NCBI GenBank assembly: GCA_035449045.1
Contig: DAOTKC010000004.1
Coordinates: forward strand, 4,414-68,413
Length of the DNA stretch: 64,000 nucleotides
Direction: 5' to 3'
DNA from: Eubacteriales bacterium
GTDB lineage: Bacteria; Bacillota; Clostridia; Christensenellales; CAG-917
Under the pieces are notes generated by a model. That model saw only the letters and a program-made list of their open reading frames with translations, was not told where the DNA came from and ran no database searches. The translations under genes were made by a program, and so were the position numbers. This document shows positions 3,776-50,532 of this stretch, piece after piece (positions within the stretch are counted from its first letter, which is position 1; every line of letters starts with the position of its first letter).

Positions 3776-5452
3776 TTACATTCTGTCAGGCGCTTCGATG
3801 CCGAGAAGTTTTAGCCCCGCACTCAAAATCTCCGCCGTGACATAAGTCAGAAGCAGGCGCGAGTCACGCTCGGTCTCGGGCGCGTCGGCTATTCTGTGAT
3901 TGAGATAAAAGCGGTTGAAGCGCTGCGCCAAACCTATCAAATAGCGTGAAAGTATCGACGGCTCGTATTTTTCGGCGGCGGCCTTGACGGCGTCGGGAAA
4001 AGCGAGCGCGGCCTTGACGGTCTCGAACGCCTCGTCGCTCAATATCCCCGAAAAATCCTTGGGCTCCTTTCGCTCCGCCTTTTTCAGCACGCTTCGCGCA
4101 CGGGCGTGAGTATATTGAAGGTAGGGTGCGGTCTCGCCGTCGAAGTTTAAAAACTTGTCGAAGGAAAACACGATATCCTTAATCCGATTGTTGTAGAGCG
4201 CGCAAAACACCACGGCGCCGACGCCGATGCTGGTTGAAATTTCCTCTTTGTTGTCGAGCTCGGGCGACTTTTCTTCGATAATTTCGCGGGCTTTTTTGAT
4301 TGATTCGGCGAACACGTCTTTAAGAAGAACAACGTTGCCCTTTCTCGTTGACATCGCGCCCTCGGCCAAAGAAACCATGCCGAATGCGACGTGCTCGAGG
4401 TCGGCAGCCCACGGCTTTCCCATCAGCTCCAAAACCTTGAAAAATTGTTTGAAGTGGAGATTTTGCTGATACGCAACGACATAGAGGCATTTGTAAAAAT
4501 CGTAGGTATTCTTTCTGTAAATGGCGGCGGCAAGGTCGCGCGTGGCGTAGAGCGTGGCGCCGTCCGCTTTTTTGAGCATGCAGGGCGGCATGCCGAATTC
4601 GTCCAGCCGGACGACTAAGGCGCCCTCGCTCTCCTCGGCCAAACCTTTGGCCTCAAGCTCGTTTAAGACCGGCCCCATCTTATCGGAATAAAAACTTTCG
4701 CCGGCGTAGCTGTCAAACTCGATGCCGAGCAGACGGTAAATTTTGGAAACCTCGGCGAGCGTCAGCTCCTTGAACCAGTTGAAAAGCTCGACGCATTCTT
4801 GCTCGCCCTGCTCGATTGCCTTAAAGTAGCGGCGCGCCTCTTCGTCTAACTCGGGATTTTTTTCGGCCTCGGCGTGAAAACGAACATAGAGCTTGTTGAG
4901 GGCGTCGACGCCGCCCGCCTCTATTTCCTTTTTATCGCCCCAGCGGCGGTATGCCGAAATGAGCTTGCCGAACTGAGTGCCCCAGTCGCCCAAATGGTTG
5001 ATGCCAACGGCGTTATAGCCCAAAAACCTGAAAATGCGGTAGAGCGCGGCGCCGATTACCGTCGTAGACAGATGGCCGATGTGGAAGGGCTTGGCGATGT
5101 TGACGGAGGAATAGTCGATGCAGACGGTCTTTCCCTTGCCGATGTCGGAGGAGCCGAAGCCTTCTTTGGCCGCGGTCAAAAGTTCCCGCGCAATATATTC
5201 TTTATCGAGAAAAAAATTCAAATATCCGTTTACGCTCTCCGCCCTTGATATAAAATCGGCGGCGGGCAGGCGGCTAAGCAACATGTCCGAAATAGCCTTG
5301 GGCGGCATTCTGAGCGCTTTGGAAAAACGGAAACAAGGCAGCGAATAGTCGCCCATCGCGGCGTCTTTGGGAATTTCGATAAACCCCTCTATCTCTTCTT
5401 TTTCAATTCCTTCGATTTCGATAAGCGCTGCAAGCTTTTTTTGATAGTCCAT
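3776..5452 (-). CDS. argS: arginine--tRNA ligase
   Basis: Class I motif PFHIGH; the protein ends in ...GIEAPDRM as ArgRS proteins usually do. The start is set at the ATG at 5452 (MDYQKKL). The track ORF begins at a TTG at 5488. Neither start has a clear SD. Confidence 0.93.
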   Translation of the reverse strand: MDYQKKLAALIEIEGIEKEEIEGFIEIPKDAAMGDYSLPCFRFSKALRMPPKAISDMLLSRLPAADFISRAESVNGYLNFFLDKEYIARELLTAAKEGFGSSDIGKGKTVCIDYSSVNIAKPFHIGHLSTTVIGAALYRIFRFLGYNAVGINHLGDWGTQFGKLISAYRRWGDKKEIEAGGVDALNKLYVRFHAEAEKNPELDEEARRYFKAIEQGEQECVELFNWFKELTLAEVSKIYRLLGIEFDSYAGESFYSDKMGPVLNELEAKGLAEESEGALVVRLDEFGMPPCMLKKADGATLYATRDLAAAIYRKNTYDFYKCLYVVAYQQNLHFKQFFKVLELMGKPWAADLEHVAFGMVSLAEGAMSTRKGNVVLLKDVFAESIKKAREIIEEKSPELDNKEEISTSIGVGAVVFCALYNNRIKDIVFSFDKFLNFDGETAPYLQYTHARARSVLKKAERKEPKDFSGILSDEAFETVKAALAFPDAVKAAAEKYEPSILSRYLIGLAQRFNRFYLNHRIADAPETERDSRLLLTYVTAEILSAGLKLLGIEAPDRM

Positions 5453-6267: not shown

Positions 6268-6319
6268 TTTGCTCTTTACTTATCTCCCCCGCCGGGCTTA
6301 TAATATAACCAGCCCGCAA

Positions 6320-6356
6320 GCTAATTATATTCAAACAAATAATAAATATAATTAGC
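6320..6356. repeat. 11-bp perfect inverted repeat GCTAATTATAT-N15-ATATAATTAGC in the uppP/ychF divergent spacer
   Basis: The arms are at 6320-6330 and 6346-6356. Confidence 0.85.
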
Positions 6357-6452
6357 GCGCGAGGTTGTTGGCTTACCGCAAAGATTTCGCGGATTGTGCT
6401 GAGGAGCCTGGCGGCGGCTAACTACCGACACCCAAGCTAACGCAGGAGATAT

Positions 6453-7541: not shown

Positions 7542-7696
7542 CGTTTTGATTTAACCGAAAATTGTTTTTGTGAATAAACTTATAAAAAATTTTCAGATGT
7601 TTTAACACGCAAACGCGGCTCGAGAGCCAATCCAAGCGCGGCGGAAAGGAAGGAGTTCTTAAGTTAGCAAGCTAAAAATCGGTCAGGCTAAAATTT

Positions 7697-7905
7697 GTCA
7701 AGTTAAGTTAAGAAAGATGTGAACAAGAAGTTAATAGGAGTTTTTCAGTCGTCAAGTTAAGAAAGATGTGAACAAAAAGTTAATAAAAGTTTTTCAGTCG
7801 TCAAGCTAAAAAGATGTGAACAAAAAGTAATAAGAGTTTTTCAGTCGTCAAGCTAAAAAAAGTTAATAGGAGTTTTTCAGTCGTCAAGCTAAAAGGGAGG
7901 TAATT
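7697..7905 (+). repeat. tandem array of about 4.5 units (54, 49, 47, 36 and 23 bp) running into the SD/ATG of the GRE gene
   Basis: Units start with GTCAAG at 7697, 7751, 7800, 7847 and 7883. The unit core is GTCAAG(C/T)TAA(G)AAAGATGTGAACAAAAAGTTAATAGGAGTTTTTCAGTC. Confidence 0.9.
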
Positions 7906-13543: not shown

Positions 13544-13968
13544 TTTTGCCTCTTTTCATTTTCATATAGTATTTTTAATAATAATAATAACAATAAGCGC
13601 TGTGGATTTGTTTACATCCCATCCATTCCCTTATATTTCAACACATTAACCCCAAAAAACAATGTTGACAAGCCGTGCATAACCTTTTCCCTTATTCCAC
13701 ATTTCCCCATTTTCGCCCTTTCCGCTCAAAAAATCCCCTCGCCTTCCCTCTCAATAAGCCCTAAATTCTCCAAATCCCACCTCACAAACATCTCAAATTA
13801 AAAAGATAAAGTTTAGCAAGAGGCACTCGGTTTTTAAATCTAAATTAAAATAGAATTAAAACACGGGATGCCGGGCTAGGCTCGTCGAAAAAGGGGCAGG
13901 CGCGTATTATAATACGTAACTGCCTCACGACGAAGACAGAAACAACGCCCCGCGCTCATATCTGAATT
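13544..13968 (-). other. candidate oriC segment (dnaA-dnaN spacer)
   Basis: 425-bp ORF-free spacer containing a DnaA box, GC cluster, DnaA-trio array and AT-rich stretch next to dnaN. A second box-like site, TATTCCACA, lies at 13693-13701. Confidence 0.65.
13576..13609 (-). promoter_or_regulatory. DnaA box (AAATCCACA) + GCGC + seven DnaA-trios (TTA TTG TTA TTA TTA TTA TTA)
   Basis: Read directly on the minus strand at 13609->13576. The order and spacing match the published basal unwinding system architecture. Confidence 0.65.
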
Positions 13969-15357
13969 CTACCTATGTAATAACATGTCTTTGATGTCTT
14001 GCAACTGTATCCGAAGTTTAGGGTTAGTTTTCAGCCCCTCCGCAATCTTATCCCTAGCGTGTATGACGGTGGTGTGGTCGCGGCCGCCGAAATAGCCGCC
14101 GATGGTGACGAGCGGGAGGGACAGCATCTCGGTTATGAGATAAATAGCTATCATTCTCGGTTCGACAATCTCTTTATTCTTCTTTTTGCCCGTTATGTCG
14201 GCGGTGGAGATGTTGAAATATTTGCAGGTGAAAAAGATGATGTCGTTGGCGTCTATGGTATCTCTCGGCACGTCGATGATGTCTTTTAAAGCCTCTCTTG
14301 CTGCGGCCACCGTGCTGACGGGATGGCCCGACAGCGAGGAGTAGAAGATGACTTTATTTAAAAGCCCTTCCATATCGCGGACGTTGGATTCGGCGTTTTC
14401 GGCGATGAAGTGGGCGACTTCGGGAGTCAGGAAGAAACCCTCCTGCTTGGCCTTTTCTTCCAAAATAGCGATTCTGGTCTCGAGATCGGGCGGCTGGATA
14501 TCGACGGTCAAGCCCCAAGTGAAACGGGTTCTGAGACGCTCGGAAAGATGGGCGATATCCTTGGGCGGACGGTCGGAGGAGAAAATAATTTGCTTGTTCA
14601 TGTGGTGGAGGTCGTTGAAAATGTGGAAGATGGCCTCCTGAACGCCGTCCTTTCCCGCCGTGTATTGAATGTCGTCGAGCATAAGGACGTCGACAAGGCG
14701 GTATTTTTCGCGGAACTTTCTATTAAGCTCTGAGTTGTTACTCTGCCGGATGACATCAAGGTATTCGTTTAAAAATGAGTTGGTCGAAACGTAGAGCACC
14801 TTGATTTGCGGCTTATTTTTTTGTATGTAGTTGCCGATGGCGTGCATCATGTGCGTCTTGCCGAGGCCGACGCCGCCGTAAATAAACAGCGGGTTAAATT
14901 TAGTGCCGGGACAGTCGGCAACCGCCTTGGCCGCCGCCGCCGCGAACTCGTTGGAGCTGCCCACAATGAAGTTGTCGAAGGTGTATTTTTTGTTGAAGGA
15001 AAAAAGCGTGTCGCGGGGGTCGGCCGCGGCATCTTTTATGATAAAGCCGGTGTCGGGCAGCGCCTCGTCCTGACGGTTTAAGTATTCTTCCTTTTCGTCC
15101 TCTCTTATGATTTCGACGCCGGCGACGGAGACGCCCGCCGTCGACTTGGCCGATTCGATGACCTCTTCGGCGATGGTGTCTTTATAGCGCGCCTCGATGG
15201 TCTTTTTGGAAACGTCGGAAGGCGCCGCCAAAACCAGCGTGTTCTTGACAAAACACACCGGCTCCAGCCGCTGCACCCAAACCTCGAAGCCGATTGCGTG
15301 AATCTTGGCCGATAGGCGGCTTAGCGCTTCTTTCCACAGGGAATCCAAGTTGACCAT
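13969..15357 (-). CDS. dnaA: chromosomal replication initiator protein DnaA
   Basis: Walker A GGVGLGKTHMMHAIGN; C-terminal DNA-binding GGRDHTTVIHARDKI. The start is set at the ATG at 15357 (MVNLDSLW). The track ORF begins two codons earlier, at a GTG at 15363. Confidence 0.96.
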   Translation of the reverse strand: MVNLDSLWKEALSRLSAKIHAIGFEVWVQRLEPVCFVKNTLVLAAPSDVSKKTIEARYKDTIAEEVIESAKSTAGVSVAGVEIIREDEKEEYLNRQDEALPDTGFIIKDAAADPRDTLFSFNKKYTFDNFIVGSSNEFAAAAAKAVADCPGTKFNPLFIYGGVGLGKTHMMHAIGNYIQKNKPQIKVLYVSTNSFLNEYLDVIRQSNNSELNRKFREKYRLVDVLMLDDIQYTAGKDGVQEAIFHIFNDLHHMNKQIIFSSDRPPKDIAHLSERLRTRFTWGLTVDIQPPDLETRIAILEEKAKQEGFFLTPEVAHFIAENAESNVRDMEGLLNKVIFYSSLSGHPVSTVAAAREALKDIIDVPRDTIDANDIIFFTCKYFNISTADITGKKKNKEIVEPRMIAIYLITEMLSLPLVTIGGYFGGRDHTTVIHARDKIAEGLKTNPKLRIQLQDIKDMLLHR

Positions 15358-15363
15358 ATGCAC

Positions 15364-15392
15364 ATTATAATATTTTTCCGCTTGAAATTCAA
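15364..15392 (-). promoter_or_regulatory. predicted dnaA promoter: TTGAAT-17-TATAAT, with the -10 ending 6 nt before the ATG at 15357
   Basis: The reverse complement of 15387-15392 is TTGAAT. The reverse complement of 15364-15369 is TATAAT. Confidence 0.5.
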
Positions 15393-15409
15393 GTGTTTTA
15401 GGATATAAT
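15382..15409 (+). promoter_or_regulatory. predicted recF promoter: TTGAAA-16-TATAAT, with the -10 ending 6 nt before the ATG at 15416
   Basis: TTGAAA at 15382-15387 and TATAAT at 15404-15409. No SD precedes the recF ATG. Confidence 0.5.
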
Positions 15410-15415
15410 AAAATA

Positions 15416-16492
15416 ATGGACGCAACCCTCCTAAAGCTTAAAAACTTCCGAAACTACCTAGAAAAAGCGGTGGAGTTTTCGAGCGGATTAAACGTTATCG
15501 AGGGTAAGAACGCGACGGGTAAAACCAACCTTTTGGAGGCGGTCTATCTTTCGGCGTTCGGCCGTTCGCCCCGTGCGGTCAAAGACAAGGAAATGATTAA
15601 CCACGGCGCTTCTCAAGCGCAAGTCCGTCTTAATTTAGAAAAAAAGTTCCGCTCCCACAAAATCGAAGTTTTTTTATTAGATAACAACAAAAAAAGCGTG
15701 CTGATTGACGGCATTCCCGCCGCCCGCTCCAACGAGCTGCTCGGCATGCTCTCCGTCGTCTATTTTTCGCCCGACGAGCTAAAGCTCATAAAAAACTCGC
15801 CCGAGGAACGCCGCCGCTTTATGGACGTCAGCCTCTGCCAGCAGAAAAAGGCCTACTTTTTCGCGCTTTCGGGCTACAATCGCCTTCTAAAACAGCGGAA
15901 CGCACTGCTTAAAGAAAGCAACTCAAAGGCAATCGCCGACACGCTGGATATCTGGGACGCCGAGATGGCAAAGACGGGCGCCGAGATAATTTTTGAGCGC
16001 GCCGCCTTTTTAAAGGGATTGGAGGCCGATGCCCGCCGCGCTCACTACGCGATAAGCGGCGGCGGCGAGGAGCTATCCCTTTTATACGAAACCGAAACTT
16101 CGGGACAAACCAAAGAGGAGCTTAGGGCGGGTATTTTGGAAGCGCTCAAGGCCGGCCGAGAGCGTGATTTGAATCTTAAATATACCGGCGCCGGCCCCCA
16201 TCGCGACGATATTAAAATTGCGCTCGACGGCCGCGACGCCAGAAAATTCGCGTCCCAAGGCCAAATCCGCACCTCGACGCTGGCGCTTAAGGTTGCCGAA
16301 ACCGCGCTCATTAAAGCGGAAACGGGCGAAAGTCCGGTGCTTCTTTTGGACGACGTGCTGTCGGAGCTCGACGAGTCCCGCCAAGCCGCCCTTTTGAATT
16401 TCGTTTCGGGGACACAGGTCATAGTGAGCTGCACCGAGTTCAAGCTTTCTGCGGTAAAGCCCGATAATATAATTAGAACAACGCCCGTTTAG
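15416..16492 (+). CDS. recF: DNA replication and repair protein RecF
   Basis: LKLKNFRNY...GKNATGKTNLLEAVY Walker A; LLLDDVLSELD Walker B/signature. Confidence 0.95.
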   Translation: MDATLLKLKNFRNYLEKAVEFSSGLNVIEGKNATGKTNLLEAVYLSAFGRSPRAVKDKEMINHGASQAQVRLNLEKKFRSHKIEVFLLDNNKKSVLIDGIPAARSNELLGMLSVVYFSPDELKLIKNSPEERRRFMDVSLCQQKKAYFFALSGYNRLLKQRNALLKESNSKAIADTLDIWDAEMAKTGAEIIFERAAFLKGLEADARRAHYAISGGGEELSLLYETETSGQTKEELRAGILEALKAGRERDLNLKYTGAGPHRDDIKIALDGRDARKFASQGQIRTSTLALKVAETALIKAETGESPVLLLDDVLSELDESRQAALLNFVSGTQVIVSCTEFKLSAVKPDNIIRTTPV

Positions 16493-16598: not shown

Positions 16599-16627
16599 TT
16601 GCCAATATGTTTATTATATGATATAAT
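16599..16627 (+). promoter_or_regulatory. predicted gyrB promoter: TTGCCA-17-(TGa)TATAAT
   Basis: TTGCCA at 16599-16604, TATAAT at 16622-16627, with an extended -10 TG at 16619-16620. This implies an about 270-nt leader. Confidence 0.5.
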
Positions 16628-16768
16628 ACTCTATAATTATATTATCTTAAATATGTGCGCGTGCATACGCGCGGGCAATTTTTTAGCTACGCAGCGGCAG
16701 ACAAGGATTAACCCGCGCAATATAACGGCATAAATGATACTAACGAACAGTTAAACGAAGAGCCTTAA

Positions 16769-16895
16769 CCAAGCTAAAAACCAAGCTAAAAACCAAGCTA
16801 AAAAATCAAGCTAAAAAATCAAGCTAAAAAATCAAGCTAAAAAATCAAGCTAAAAAACCAAGCTAAAAACCGAGGTAAAAAGCCGAGGTTAAGGA
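16769..16895 (+). repeat. tandem 12/13-bp array: eight CCAAGCTAAAAA / TCAAGCTAAAAAA units plus two degenerate CCGAGGT units, ending in the gyrB SD
   Basis: AAGCTAAAAA starts at 16771, 16783, 16795, 16808, 16821, 16834, 16847 and 16860. These are followed by CCGAGGTAAAAAG and CCGAGGTTAAGGAG. Confidence 0.95.
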
Positions 16896-26642: not shown

Positions 26643-26799
26643 CTGCGGATAGCGGCTTACGCCGAACGATAAACGCTCAACGAAAAACGAAAAACTGCGG
26701 ATAGCGGTTTACGCCGAACGGCTTACGCCGAACGGCTTACGCCGAACGATAAACGCTCAACAAAAAACGAAAACCTGCGGATAGCGGCGCAAGCGCCAA
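26643..26799. repeat. dispersed intergenic repeat family, locus A (A-rich orientation; 2.5 tandem units with an internal 3x GGCTTACGCCGAAC)
   Basis: CTGCGGATAGCGGCTTACGCCGAACGATAAACGCTCAACGAAAAACGAAAAA is repeated. Confidence 0.9.
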
Positions 26800-27047: not shown

Positions 27048-28322
27048 TTAAATTTCGCGCAATACATCGGTGAGTTTTGTCAAAATACGAGCCGCAATTT
27101 CGGGGTCACCCTCAACCATAATTCGGATTACGGGCTCTGTTCCGCTGGCTCTGACTAAAACGCAGCCGGCGTCGCCCATGAGCTTCTTTGCTCGCTCGAC
27201 CTCCTTCAATAAATAAGTGTTGGACATCGCGGCGTATTTATCGCGGACGGCAACGTTTTTCTCGGTGACGGGATAGGGTTTATAGTCGGGAAGGTCGGTG
27301 ATAAGCCGCGTCTTTAAAAACCACGCCGCCGACATGATGCCGTCGCAGGTCGCAACGTAGTCGCCGATTATGAGGTGTCCGCTCCTCTCGCCGCCGAGAG
27401 CGGCGTTCAGGCGTTTCATATCGGCGAGCACGTATTTGTCGCCGACGTCGGCGCGGTGGAGCTTGACGCCCCGACGGGATAAAAAGCATTCGAGGGCGGA
27501 GTTGGTCATCGAGGTGCCGACGACTATGTTATTTTTGAGAAGCCCGCGCGAGAGAAGATAGTCGGAAATGTAATATAGAAAATGGTCGCCGTCGAGAAGC
27601 TTGCCGTCATAAATCCCTATCACGCGGTCGCCGTCGCCGTCGAAGGCGAAGCCGACGCCGTCAGTCATCTTTGTCGATAAAAACTCGGGGTGCGTCGAGC
27701 CCGAATAGACGTTGACCAAATCGCCGTCGTAAGAGTTGCAAAGTGCGGTGACGGAGGCGCCCAAGGCGGAAAAGATGTCCGCCGCGAAACCCGCGGTAGC
27801 GCCGAAACAGCAGTCAAGCGTTATTGATATGCCCGAAAACGAGGCGTTGACCGCCTCTTTAACATAGTCGCAATAAATCGCCTTGGCGTCTTGAAGGTCA
27901 ACAAGCTTAGCGGCGCCTAAGCCTTTCGCGGGGTTTTCCATCTGCTCGTTGAAGCGCTCCTCCAGCGAGGCGGGCGGCTTTTCGCCTTCGGCAACCAGCG
28001 TTTTTAAGCCGTTGTCGGTGGGCGGGTTGTGGGACGCCGTCACCATGACGCCGTAGTCCGCCTCGAATTTTTTGACTAAAAAGGCGAGCACGGGTGTGGG
28101 GATTATCCCCGCCGAAATAATCTCGAGGTCAAATTCGCTCAAGCCCTCGATTAGCTCGGCGTAAATCTCCTCCGAGGTGTTTCTGGTGTCCCTCGCTACG
28201 ACGATGCGCTTCGGCTTATATCCGCCCAAAACGCGGGCGAGCCTGAGCGCGGTGTGTTCAAAGAGCAGCAGACGCCCTTCGGCGCGGATTCCATCGGTTC
28301 CAAATAAACAAGATTTATCCAT
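27048..28322 (-). CDS. alpha-D-phosphohexomutase family protein (GlmM-like phosphoglucosamine mutase)
   Basis: FGTDGIRAEG, phosphoserine loop TASHNPPTDNGLK, metal loop FDGDGDR, GGERSGH. Confidence 0.8.
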   Translation of the reverse strand: MDKSCLFGTDGIRAEGRLLLFEHTALRLARVLGGYKPKRIVVARDTRNTSEEIYAELIEGLSEFDLEIISAGIIPTPVLAFLVKKFEADYGVMVTASHNPPTDNGLKTLVAEGEKPPASLEERFNEQMENPAKGLGAAKLVDLQDAKAIYCDYVKEAVNASFSGISITLDCCFGATAGFAADIFSALGASVTALCNSYDGDLVNVYSGSTHPEFLSTKMTDGVGFAFDGDGDRVIGIYDGKLLDGDHFLYYISDYLLSRGLLKNNIVVGTSMTNSALECFLSRRGVKLHRADVGDKYVLADMKRLNAALGGERSGHLIIGDYVATCDGIMSAAWFLKTRLITDLPDYKPYPVTEKNVAVRDKYAAMSNTYLLKEVERAKKLMGDAGCVLVRASGTEPVIRIMVEGDPEIAARILTKLTDVLREI

Positions 28323-28412: not shown

Positions 28413-28553
28413 CCACATTATTCATTATTCGTTAATCATATTCATTCCGCGAAAGCCGCAATCCGCAGTTTTTCGTTTTTCGTTGAGCGTTTTTCGTTCG
28501 GTGAAAGCCGCTATCCACAGTTTTTCGTTTTTCGTTGAGCGTTTATCGTTCGG
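28413..28553. repeat. dispersed intergenic repeat family, locus B (T-rich orientation; 2 units, the first with the AT-rich module)
   Basis: ...GCCGCAATCCGCAGTTTTTCGTTTTTCGTTGAGCGTTTTTCGTTCGG / ...GCCGCTATCCACAGTTTTTCGTTTTTCGTTGAGCGTTTATCGTTCGG. Confidence 0.9.
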
Positions 28554-50333: not shown

Positions 50334-50532
50334 ATCCACAGTTATTCATTATTCATTATTAATTATTAATTCGGCGTAAGCCGTCATCCACCGTTTTTCG
50401 TTTTTCGTTGAGCGTTTTTCTTTCGGCGCAACGCGCCGCGTCCACCATTATTCATTATTCATTATTAATTATTAATTCGGCGTAAGCCGCCATCCACCGT
50501 TTTTCGTTTTTCGTTGAGCGTTTTTCATTCGG
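50333..50532. repeat. dispersed intergenic repeat family, locus C (T-rich orientation; 2 full units of about 106 bp)
   Basis: TCCAC(A/C)(G/A)TTATTCATTATTCATTATTAATTATTAATTCGGCGTAAGCCG(T/C)CATCCACCGTTTTTCGTTTTTCGTTGAGCGTTTTTC(T/A)TTCGG occurs twice. Confidence 0.9.

Follow-up and report, generated by a model that had tools for sequence, protein, structure and literature searches.

Two interlocked divergent promoters between dnaA and recF are predicted to yield leaderless mRNAs in an uncultured Clostridia bacterium

In most accounts, dnaA expression is under tight control by DnaA boxes, several promoters and leaders, and the canonical dnaA promoter regions (E. coli dnaAp1/p2, B. subtilis) carry DnaA boxes for autoregulation. 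On an mRNA that starts with AUG, the ribosome binds directly, together with initiator tRNA, to begin translation, and at the divergent PRM/PR promoters of phage lambda, whose starts lie ~80 bp apart under the control of the operators OR1-OR3, only cI is leaderless. Here, we analyze the spacer between dnaA and recF in a 64,000-nucleotide stretch of DNA, hereafter the window (positions 4,414 to 68,413 of contig DAOTKC010000004.1, assembly GCA_035449045.1; coordinates below are those of the window), from a Eubacteriales bacterium of the lineage CAG-917 in the Christensenellales. We propose that this spacer holds two divergent sigma-A promoters with interdigitated -35 hexamers, predicted to yield leaderless dnaA and recF mRNAs, and assign this reading a probability of roughly 0.7.

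The accepted mark of a leaderless gene in bacteria is a TANNNT box ~10 nt ahead of its start codon (Zheng et al. 2011, PMC3160421), and such TA-led leaderless genes are detectable in 56 of 209 Firmicutes genomes, where they make up 4.2% of genes on average, with a range of 2.4-16.6% (PMC3160421). Closely juxtaposed divergent leaderless pairs, such as prpD/Rv1129c, are found in Mycobacterium tuberculosis (PMC3898074). In the bidirectional promoters of E. coli and Salmonella, a shared pseudo-symmetric -10 element lets polymerase bind in two orientations (PMC12825309, PMC10268837); in E. coli, steric competition at these promoters becomes important only under strong activity in one direction (PMC12825309).

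On the recF side of the spacer (+ strand), TTGAAA is followed after 16 nt by TATAAT, 6 nt (AAAATA) and the ATG at 15416-15418, and on the dnaA side (- strand), TTGAAT is followed after 17 nt by TATAAT, 6 nt (GTGCAT) and the ATG at 15357-15355 (Table 1). The + strand promoter spans 15382-15409 and the - strand promoter 15392-15364, with the -35 hexamers sharing base 15387, so that core elements overlap on opposite strands as in other overlapping divergent sigma-70-type promoters. A distance of 34 bp separates the -10 boxes (15364-15369 versus 15404-15409), and one of 59 bp the predicted starts. An exact TATAAT 6 nt before both ATGs agrees with the leaderless-gene signature of a TANNNT box ~7-12 nt upstream of the start. 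A sequence-only reading of the window had described this arrangement, and when the sequence was reread its coordinates for both promoters were all correct, as was the position of each ATG at the 7th nucleotide after a -10 box; an inverted-repeat check likewise confirmed the palindrome that it had placed at 15381-15393, formed by -35 hexamers with one base in common. Two details need amending. The spacer, given as 52 bp, measures 58 bp between the ATGs and reaches 52 bp only if counted from a GTG at 15363, and the promoters, called back-to-back with overlapping -35 boxes, do overlap but are not strictly back-to-back, since the -35 boxes are crossed over (11-bp overlap).

The two sites are the best matches on their respective strands (11 of 12 positions on the + strand, 10 of 12 on the - strand) in a consensus promoter scan of 12-19 kb. 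To estimate how often chance would give the same layout, the 58-nt spacer was shuffled 200,000 times with its composition preserved, and a promoter was counted if it was correctly placed and matched at least 10 of 12 positions. The frequency was 0.0043 per strand for one such promoter and 1e-5 for the two in combination, which argues that the arrangement is not a by-product of A/T richness. Scanning the whole window at the Rfam gathering threshold gave no hits, and hence no known RNA element in or near the spacer.

The upstream regions of dnaA from 25 lineages, the window included, were all scored by one script (L-numbers label the relatives' loci). Within the genome collection, the closest species representative is 'Faecalibacterium sp. 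CAG:1138' (L001/L002), with a DnaA 57% identical to that of the window, and the protein database contains one 100% identical fragment (L086) and beyond it just a few proteins at 60-69% identity; L086 comes from the same species (99.9% DNA identity to the window) and ends inside dnaA, leaving the spacer uncovered. In all 13 lineages whose DnaA is at least 57% identical (the window, L081, L083, L084, L085, L087, L088, L089, L090, L091, L092, L001 and L002), a -10 box stands 6-9 nt before the dnaA ATG. The box reads TATAAT in 10 of them, TATTAT in 2 and TATAGT in 1, and its end is 6 nt from the ATG in four lineages, 7 nt in five and 9 nt in four. A TTGnnn -35 hexamer (e.g., TTGCAT, TTGCAA, TTGAAA) is found at 17-18 nt in 12 of the 13, and every one of the 13 has T at -1, A at +1, an ATG start and no Shine-Dalgarno sequence (SD) before dnaA. 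The bases between the -10 box and the ATG vary (GTGCAT, GGCAAT, GTCGAT, TATTAAT, TTTTAGT, AAGCGAT, GAACTT and others), and the signature is independent of the upstream gene, be it a divergent recF, a co-directional recF (L090), gidB (L092) or an MFS transporter (L081). Given that the distance stays at 6-9 nt despite this variation in intervening bases and upstream genes, the conserved feature is the promoter-to-start-codon geometry, as a leaderless or near-leaderless dnaA predicts.

More distant relatives present the opposite picture. All 12 lineages with DnaA at most 51% identical have an SD and lack an adjacent -10 box, and the SD typically sits in a ~20-nt leader after the promoter, as in L006 (TTGACA-17-TATAAT-...-AGGAG-ATG). 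A leaderless-type dnaA therefore looks like a derived character of the clade to which the window belongs. Gene order near dnaA is unusually fluid among the loci compared (L001-L022, L081-L092). There recF may diverge from dnaA, precede it in the same direction or follow it on either strand, and its place next to dnaA can be taken by gidB or an MFS transporter.

The layout on the recF side is shared less widely. TATAAT lies 6-7 nt before a recF ATG without an SD in seven lineages (the window, L083, L084, L087, L089, L091 and L006) and 9 nt before it in L009, L010, L012 and L013, while other lineages, including L001, L002 and L088, have recF with an SD. The interlocked spacer is kept in two other species-level lineages at 67-69% identity, L083 (60 bp) and L084 (59 bp), where the order of elements is the same as in the window (recF -10, dnaA -35, recF -35, dnaA -10) and the recF -35 is again TTGAAA, at 17-nt spacing to its -10. 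Between the window and these two loci, identity is 68-77% in the spacer and 58-61% over the first 300 nt of either gene, which indicates that the noncoding DNA is constrained at least as much as the coding DNA. Conservation of the spacer in related genomes, a check that the sequence-only reading had proposed, is thus found above the level of the flanking coding sequence. In L087 and L091 the spacers are 106-115 bp long and both genes are leaderless-type, with promoters that do not overlap; L001, L002, L088 and L089 have spacers of 125-153 bp. When a metagenome collection was scanned for a degenerate version of the conserved spacer pattern, no further compact spacers emerged from it. The sole match, L093, is a chance match: no dnaA-sized or recF-sized open reading frame (ORF) adjoins the pattern, and the only two ORFs that reach 100 aa, of 193 and 205 aa, lie >400 bp away. 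Taken together, the comparative evidence (all 13 lineages for dnaA, seven for recF) supports the leaderless dnaA and recF that had been predicted from the window, as a prediction at the transcript level.

The start codons on which this geometry depends are well anchored. DnaA residues 8-459 align to positions 1-437 of the NCBIfam model TIGR00362, and RecF residues 6-340 to positions 4-339 of TIGR00611; NCBIfam also confirmed the identities of dnaN, gyrB and gyrA, so that the locus runs dnaN and dnaA leftward, then recF, gyrB and gyrA rightward. The N-terminus read from the dnaA ATG at 15357, MVNLDSLWKEAL, lines up with the MVNID/MINID starts seen among relatives (conserved M-[VI]-[ND]-[IL]), whereas the GTG at 15363, which the sequence-only reading had raised as the other option, abuts the dnaA -10 box and has no counterpart among relatives. 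In recF, no start codon intervenes between an in-frame TGA stop at 15383-15385 and the ATG at 15416-15418. It is most improbable that the starts are mis-assigned and that the true ones lie downstream after SDs. GAGGT and GGAG do sit 3-4 nt ahead of GTGs at 15276 and 15258 inside dnaA, but these GTGs, rejected here as starts, would cost 27-33 residues of the conserved DnaA N-terminal domain, which the family model and the relatives' proteins align from residue 8 and from the first ATG, respectively; within the first 60 residues of RecF, the reading frame offers no second ATG. In public annotations the recF start is extended by 10 codons in L083 (2483-3580) and L088 (851-1969), and the dnaA call of L084 (2455-3795) is shortened by 11 codons. 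Misplacement of starts by automatic callers is typical of leaderless genes, and we count it for the leaderless reading; because gene callers misplace these starts, the annotated positions of dnaA and recF in such genomes have to be corrected by hand.

A survey of start contexts in the window bears out the contrast between these two genes and their surroundings that had been drawn earlier. GGAG-type SDs precede most other genes, among them dnaN (GAGG), gyrB (AAGGAG), gyrA (AGGAG), the ychF-like gene (AGGAG) and about 25 more. For dnaA, which starts with ATG, no SD is present at functional spacing, as had been claimed of both genes; for recF, also with an ATG start, the claim holds apart from a marginal AGGA, to which we return below. 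The window also suggests that this organism uses the layout of a -10 box abutting the start codon at other genes. Among 56 exact TATAAT hexamers in the window, the offset to the start of a downstream long ORF spikes at 6 nt (three cases: dnaA, recF and lplA) and 8 nt (one case: a phosphoglucomutase-family gene), each start being the gene's 5'-most, whereas genes led by an SD have TATAAT 25-45 nt upstream. Clearly leaderless-type genes number about 4 of 49 (8%), a share inside the 2.4-16.6% range reported for Firmicutes (PMC3160421). A phosphoglucomutase-family gene of L081 has an SD (GAGG) and was not used, as its orthology with the window gene at 28322 is not established.

Bacterial RNA polymerase starts transcription most often at the 7th nucleotide after the -10 box and favors sites where -1 is a pyrimidine and +1 a purine. 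With 6 nt separating each -10 box from a start codon, we infer that polymerase would start at the A of each ATG, and the resulting dnaA and recF mRNAs would have neither a 5' untranslated region (5'-UTR) nor an SD. Translation would then take the leaderless route, with the ribosome and initiator tRNA binding directly to the 5'-terminal AUG. Neither predicted 5' end is strongly structured: the recF mRNA is almost free of structure over its first 50 nt (-1.6 kcal/mol), and the 5' end of the dnaA mRNA, at -8.5 kcal/mol, folds more weakly than shuffles (z = +1.1). With overlapping footprints (overlapping -35 boxes and starts only 59 bp apart), two polymerases probably cannot occupy both promoters together. 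The two genes may compete when either is strongly transcribed and, by the findings on E. coli bidirectional promoters, may be independent at basal levels.

Several observations weigh against this reading. The four lineages with 9 nt between the -10 box and the dnaA ATG would carry a leader of 2-3 nt rather than none. The spacer is 78% A+T, which makes TA-rich hexamers likelier there than elsewhere, and recF in the window has A, not a pyrimidine, at -1. A weak AGGA at 15400-15403 lies 12 nt upstream of the recF ATG, where it overlaps the -10 box; it is absent in L083 and L084. The sequence ATTATAAT at 15364-15371 is symmetric and gives TATAAT on both strands, and its + strand reading (15366-15371), 44 nt ahead of the recF ATG, could serve a second recF start with a ~38-nt leader. 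In C. difficile, only 6-15 leaderless mRNAs have been mapped experimentally (PMC8237595, PMC7438776), and leaderless mRNAs are rare in C. phytofermentans (PMC5171806), so that the leaderless-type share in the window is higher than in experimentally mapped Clostridia.

The last of these points also favors the alternative that survives best, which we nevertheless regard as unlikely. Both mRNAs could be leadered, transcribed from promoters inside the neighboring genes and translated by SD-independent initiation on an unstructured A/U-rich leader, the TATAAT hexamers reflecting composition. The low G+C content of the spacer (22%) and the existence of SD-less leadered initiation in bacteria fit such a view, but the shuffling frequency of 1e-5 for both promoters does not, nor does the constant distance to the ATG kept by a -10 box with a TTG -35 at 17-18 nt across 13 lineages while the intervening bases change. 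The consensus scan also offers few promoters of this kind. No - strand promoter-like site occurs in 15392-16466, the nearest downstream one being at 16495-16466, and the sole + strand site inside dnaA is a 9-of-12 match at 14213.

The symmetric ATTATAAT and the AGGA could be combined in another way, with only dnaA leaderless and recF expressed mainly from the + strand TATAAT with its ~38-nt leader, the AGGA acting as ribosome-binding site. We consider this improbable. The + strand hexamer has no -35 match at 16-18 nt, both it and the AGGA are absent from L083 and L084, the 12-nt spacing of the AGGA is beyond the usual SD window, and the conserved recF TTGAAA-17-TATAAT-N6/7-ATG would be left unexplained.

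Similarly, the 13-bp repeat CTTGAAATTCAAG, with perfect 6-bp arms centred between dnaA and recF, might be the operator of a dimeric regulator for both genes, beside or instead of its -35 role. This is very unlikely, and a conserved operator was rejected, because the dyad is not kept: L083 retains only CTTG/CAAG with a 6-nt centre, one arm is broken in L084 (CTTGCATTTTCAAC), and conservation lies in one TTGnnn per strand, set at promoter spacing. The analysis turned up no candidate regulator. With the dyad kept in neither locus, the inverted repeat is instead a by-product of two facing TTG-type -35 hexamers.

The two interlocked promoters leave little space for DnaA binding, in line with the earlier remark that there is no room for a DnaA-box cluster. 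No DnaA box with one mismatch or less to TTATCCACA occurs in the spacer (15358-15415), and the 64-kb window has no perfect TTATCCACA anywhere, whereas the longer spacers of L001, L002, L088 and L089 (125-153 bp), and the region upstream of dnaA in L092 (gidB upstream), carry a perfect TTATCCACA upstream of the dnaA promoter. The promoter-region boxes that mark a DnaA-box-autoregulated dnaA are thus absent from the window. Matches with two mismatches, ATATGCACA (15356) and CTTTCCACA (15330), were rejected as autoregulatory, being unconserved and at a chance density of ~1 per 730 nt. An oriC-like core in the dnaA-dnaN intergenic region is the likely place of the boxes missing from the spacer. 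Read on the - strand (about 13550-13700), degenerate DnaA boxes precede the core just upstream of dnaN, and the same module recurs in L081, L085, L087, L088, L001 and L002 with better tandem boxes (TTATCCAC[AT]TATCAACA), a GC 4-mer, trinucleotide repeats and AT-rich DNA. DnaA therefore probably has binding sites nearby, but downstream of dnaA. The GC skew profile of the window gave no clear origin signal.

Table 1. Predicted promoter elements at the dnaA/recF spacer and other features of the window.
Feature	Position	Strand	Details
dnaA/recF spacer, 58 bp, 22% GC	15358..15415	.	homologous spacers: 60 bp in L083, 59 bp in L084
predicted recF -35 box TTGAAA	15382..15387	+	consensus scan, 11/12 site
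predicted recF -10 box TATAAT	15404..15409	+	A of ATG at 15416 is the 7th nt after it and the predicted transcription start site
predicted dnaA -35 box TTGAAT	15387..15392	-	consensus scan, 10/12 site
predicted dnaA -10 box TATAAT	15364..15369	-	A of ATG at 15357 is the 7th nt after it and the predicted transcription start site
inverted repeat CTTGAA-A-TTCAAG (6+1+6), CTTGAAATTCAAG	15381..15393	.	two opposed -35 hexamers
dnaA coding sequence, 462 aa + stop	13969..15357	-	ATG at 15357; TIGR00362, 481 bits
recF coding sequence, 358 aa + stop	15416..16492	+	TIGR00611, 356 bits; first start codon of the ORF
oriC-like core	13550..13609	-	DnaA-box-like AAATCCACA, GCGC, (TTA/TTG)x7, AT-rich tract; dnaA-dnaN intergenic
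argS	5452	-	TGnGATAAT-N9-ATG, no SD
phosphoglucomutase-family gene	28322	-	TATAAT-N8-ATG, no SD
lplA	30842	+	TTGCCT-17-TATAAT-N6-GTG, no SD; GTG would be the 5'-terminal codon

Repeats of a different nature occur elsewhere in the window. The gyrB leader contains nine copies of a 13-bp tandem repeat, AACCAAGCTAAAA (16767-16881), between a strong promoter-like site at 16599-16627 and the gyrB SD; L083 and L084 lack this repeat in their recF-gyrB spacers. Its core, CAAGCTAA, occurs 16 times in the window against 2.1 expected, with 14 of the 16 on the + strand upstream of the ychF-like gene (6453), a PFL-like gene (7906) and gyrB, likely in 5' leaders; beyond the gyrB leader, repeat sites of this type lie at 6317-6440 and 7668-7892. 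A 25-mer, GTTTTTCGTTTTTCGTTGAGCGTTT, is present in six copies (0 expected by chance), paired at 26671-26775, 28468-28544 and 50393-50523, all outside long ORFs and within tandem duplications of 52 to 106 bp.

Returning to dnaA and recF, the simplest history of the leaderless layout would be leader loss first and spacer deletion later. An ancestral short dnaA leader containing an SD may have been lost at the base of the uncultured Clostridia clade, after which the sub-lineage of the window, L083 and L084 may have deleted T-rich DNA between the -35 boxes together with the upstream DnaA box. Judged from sequence, the whole clade seems to run dnaA from one promoter without a leader, and one sub-lineage also without DnaA boxes in the promoter region, which would offer a naturally minimal system in which to ask how much of dnaA regulation can be dispensed with. 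The sharp switch among relatives, from an SD leader to a -10 box abutting the ATG, would show a route to leaderlessness by leader loss, and the spacer lengths of 58, 106-115 and 125-153 bp could serve as natural variants for testing polymerase competition at divergent promoters. We raise one further, doubtful possibility: that the interlocked -35 boxes are a selected, regulator-free toggle in which dnaA and recF polymerases are mutually exclusive, and that the clade as a whole has moved to unusually high use of leaderless initiation at core genes. With such a toggle, expression of the replication initiator would be coupled to that of a replication-repair gene in a lineage that lacks DnaA-box autoregulation and dnaA 5'-UTR control.

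Compared with canonical dnaA promoters, the locus has the same gene, and L001, L002, L088, L089 and L092 keep a perfect TTATCCACA upstream, but the spacer of the window has no box with one mismatch or less and dnaA is predicted to lack a 5'-UTR. Lambda PRM/PR likewise places divergent promoters in one short control region, and its cI transcript begins at the AUG; here, in contrast, both genes are leaderless-type, the predicted starts are 59 bp apart and no operators are evident. The symmetry that allows two polymerase orientations is shared with the bidirectional promoters built on a common -10 element, yet the -10 boxes here are separate, the -35 boxes overlap and the starts are 59 bp apart where theirs are close, and the symmetry of ATTATAAT, having no + strand -35, does not place the spacer in that class. 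Like prpD/Rv1129c, the locus has two divergent leaderless-type genes served by one short intergenic region, but the M. tuberculosis pair was mapped experimentally and joins a regulator to its target, whereas the pair described here is predicted, consists of two housekeeping genes of DNA metabolism and has interdigitated -35 boxes. With bacterial leaderless genes in general (PMC3160421; M. tuberculosis, PMC3898074), it has in common the -10 box abutting the start codon, the lack of an SD and the AUG, and differs from them in its host class, Clostridia, and in the gene being dnaA, for which a limited search of the searchable literature found no report of a leaderless mRNA. Leaderless genes, overlapping divergent promoters and divergent leaderless pairs are thus documented kinds; what appears to be new is dnaA as the gene, Clostridia as the class, the predicted clade-wide switch from SD-led to leaderless-type dnaA, and a very compact cassette in which both genes are leaderless-type. 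Rather than a new principle, the dnaA/recF spacer is a neat, conserved and testable example of known ones.

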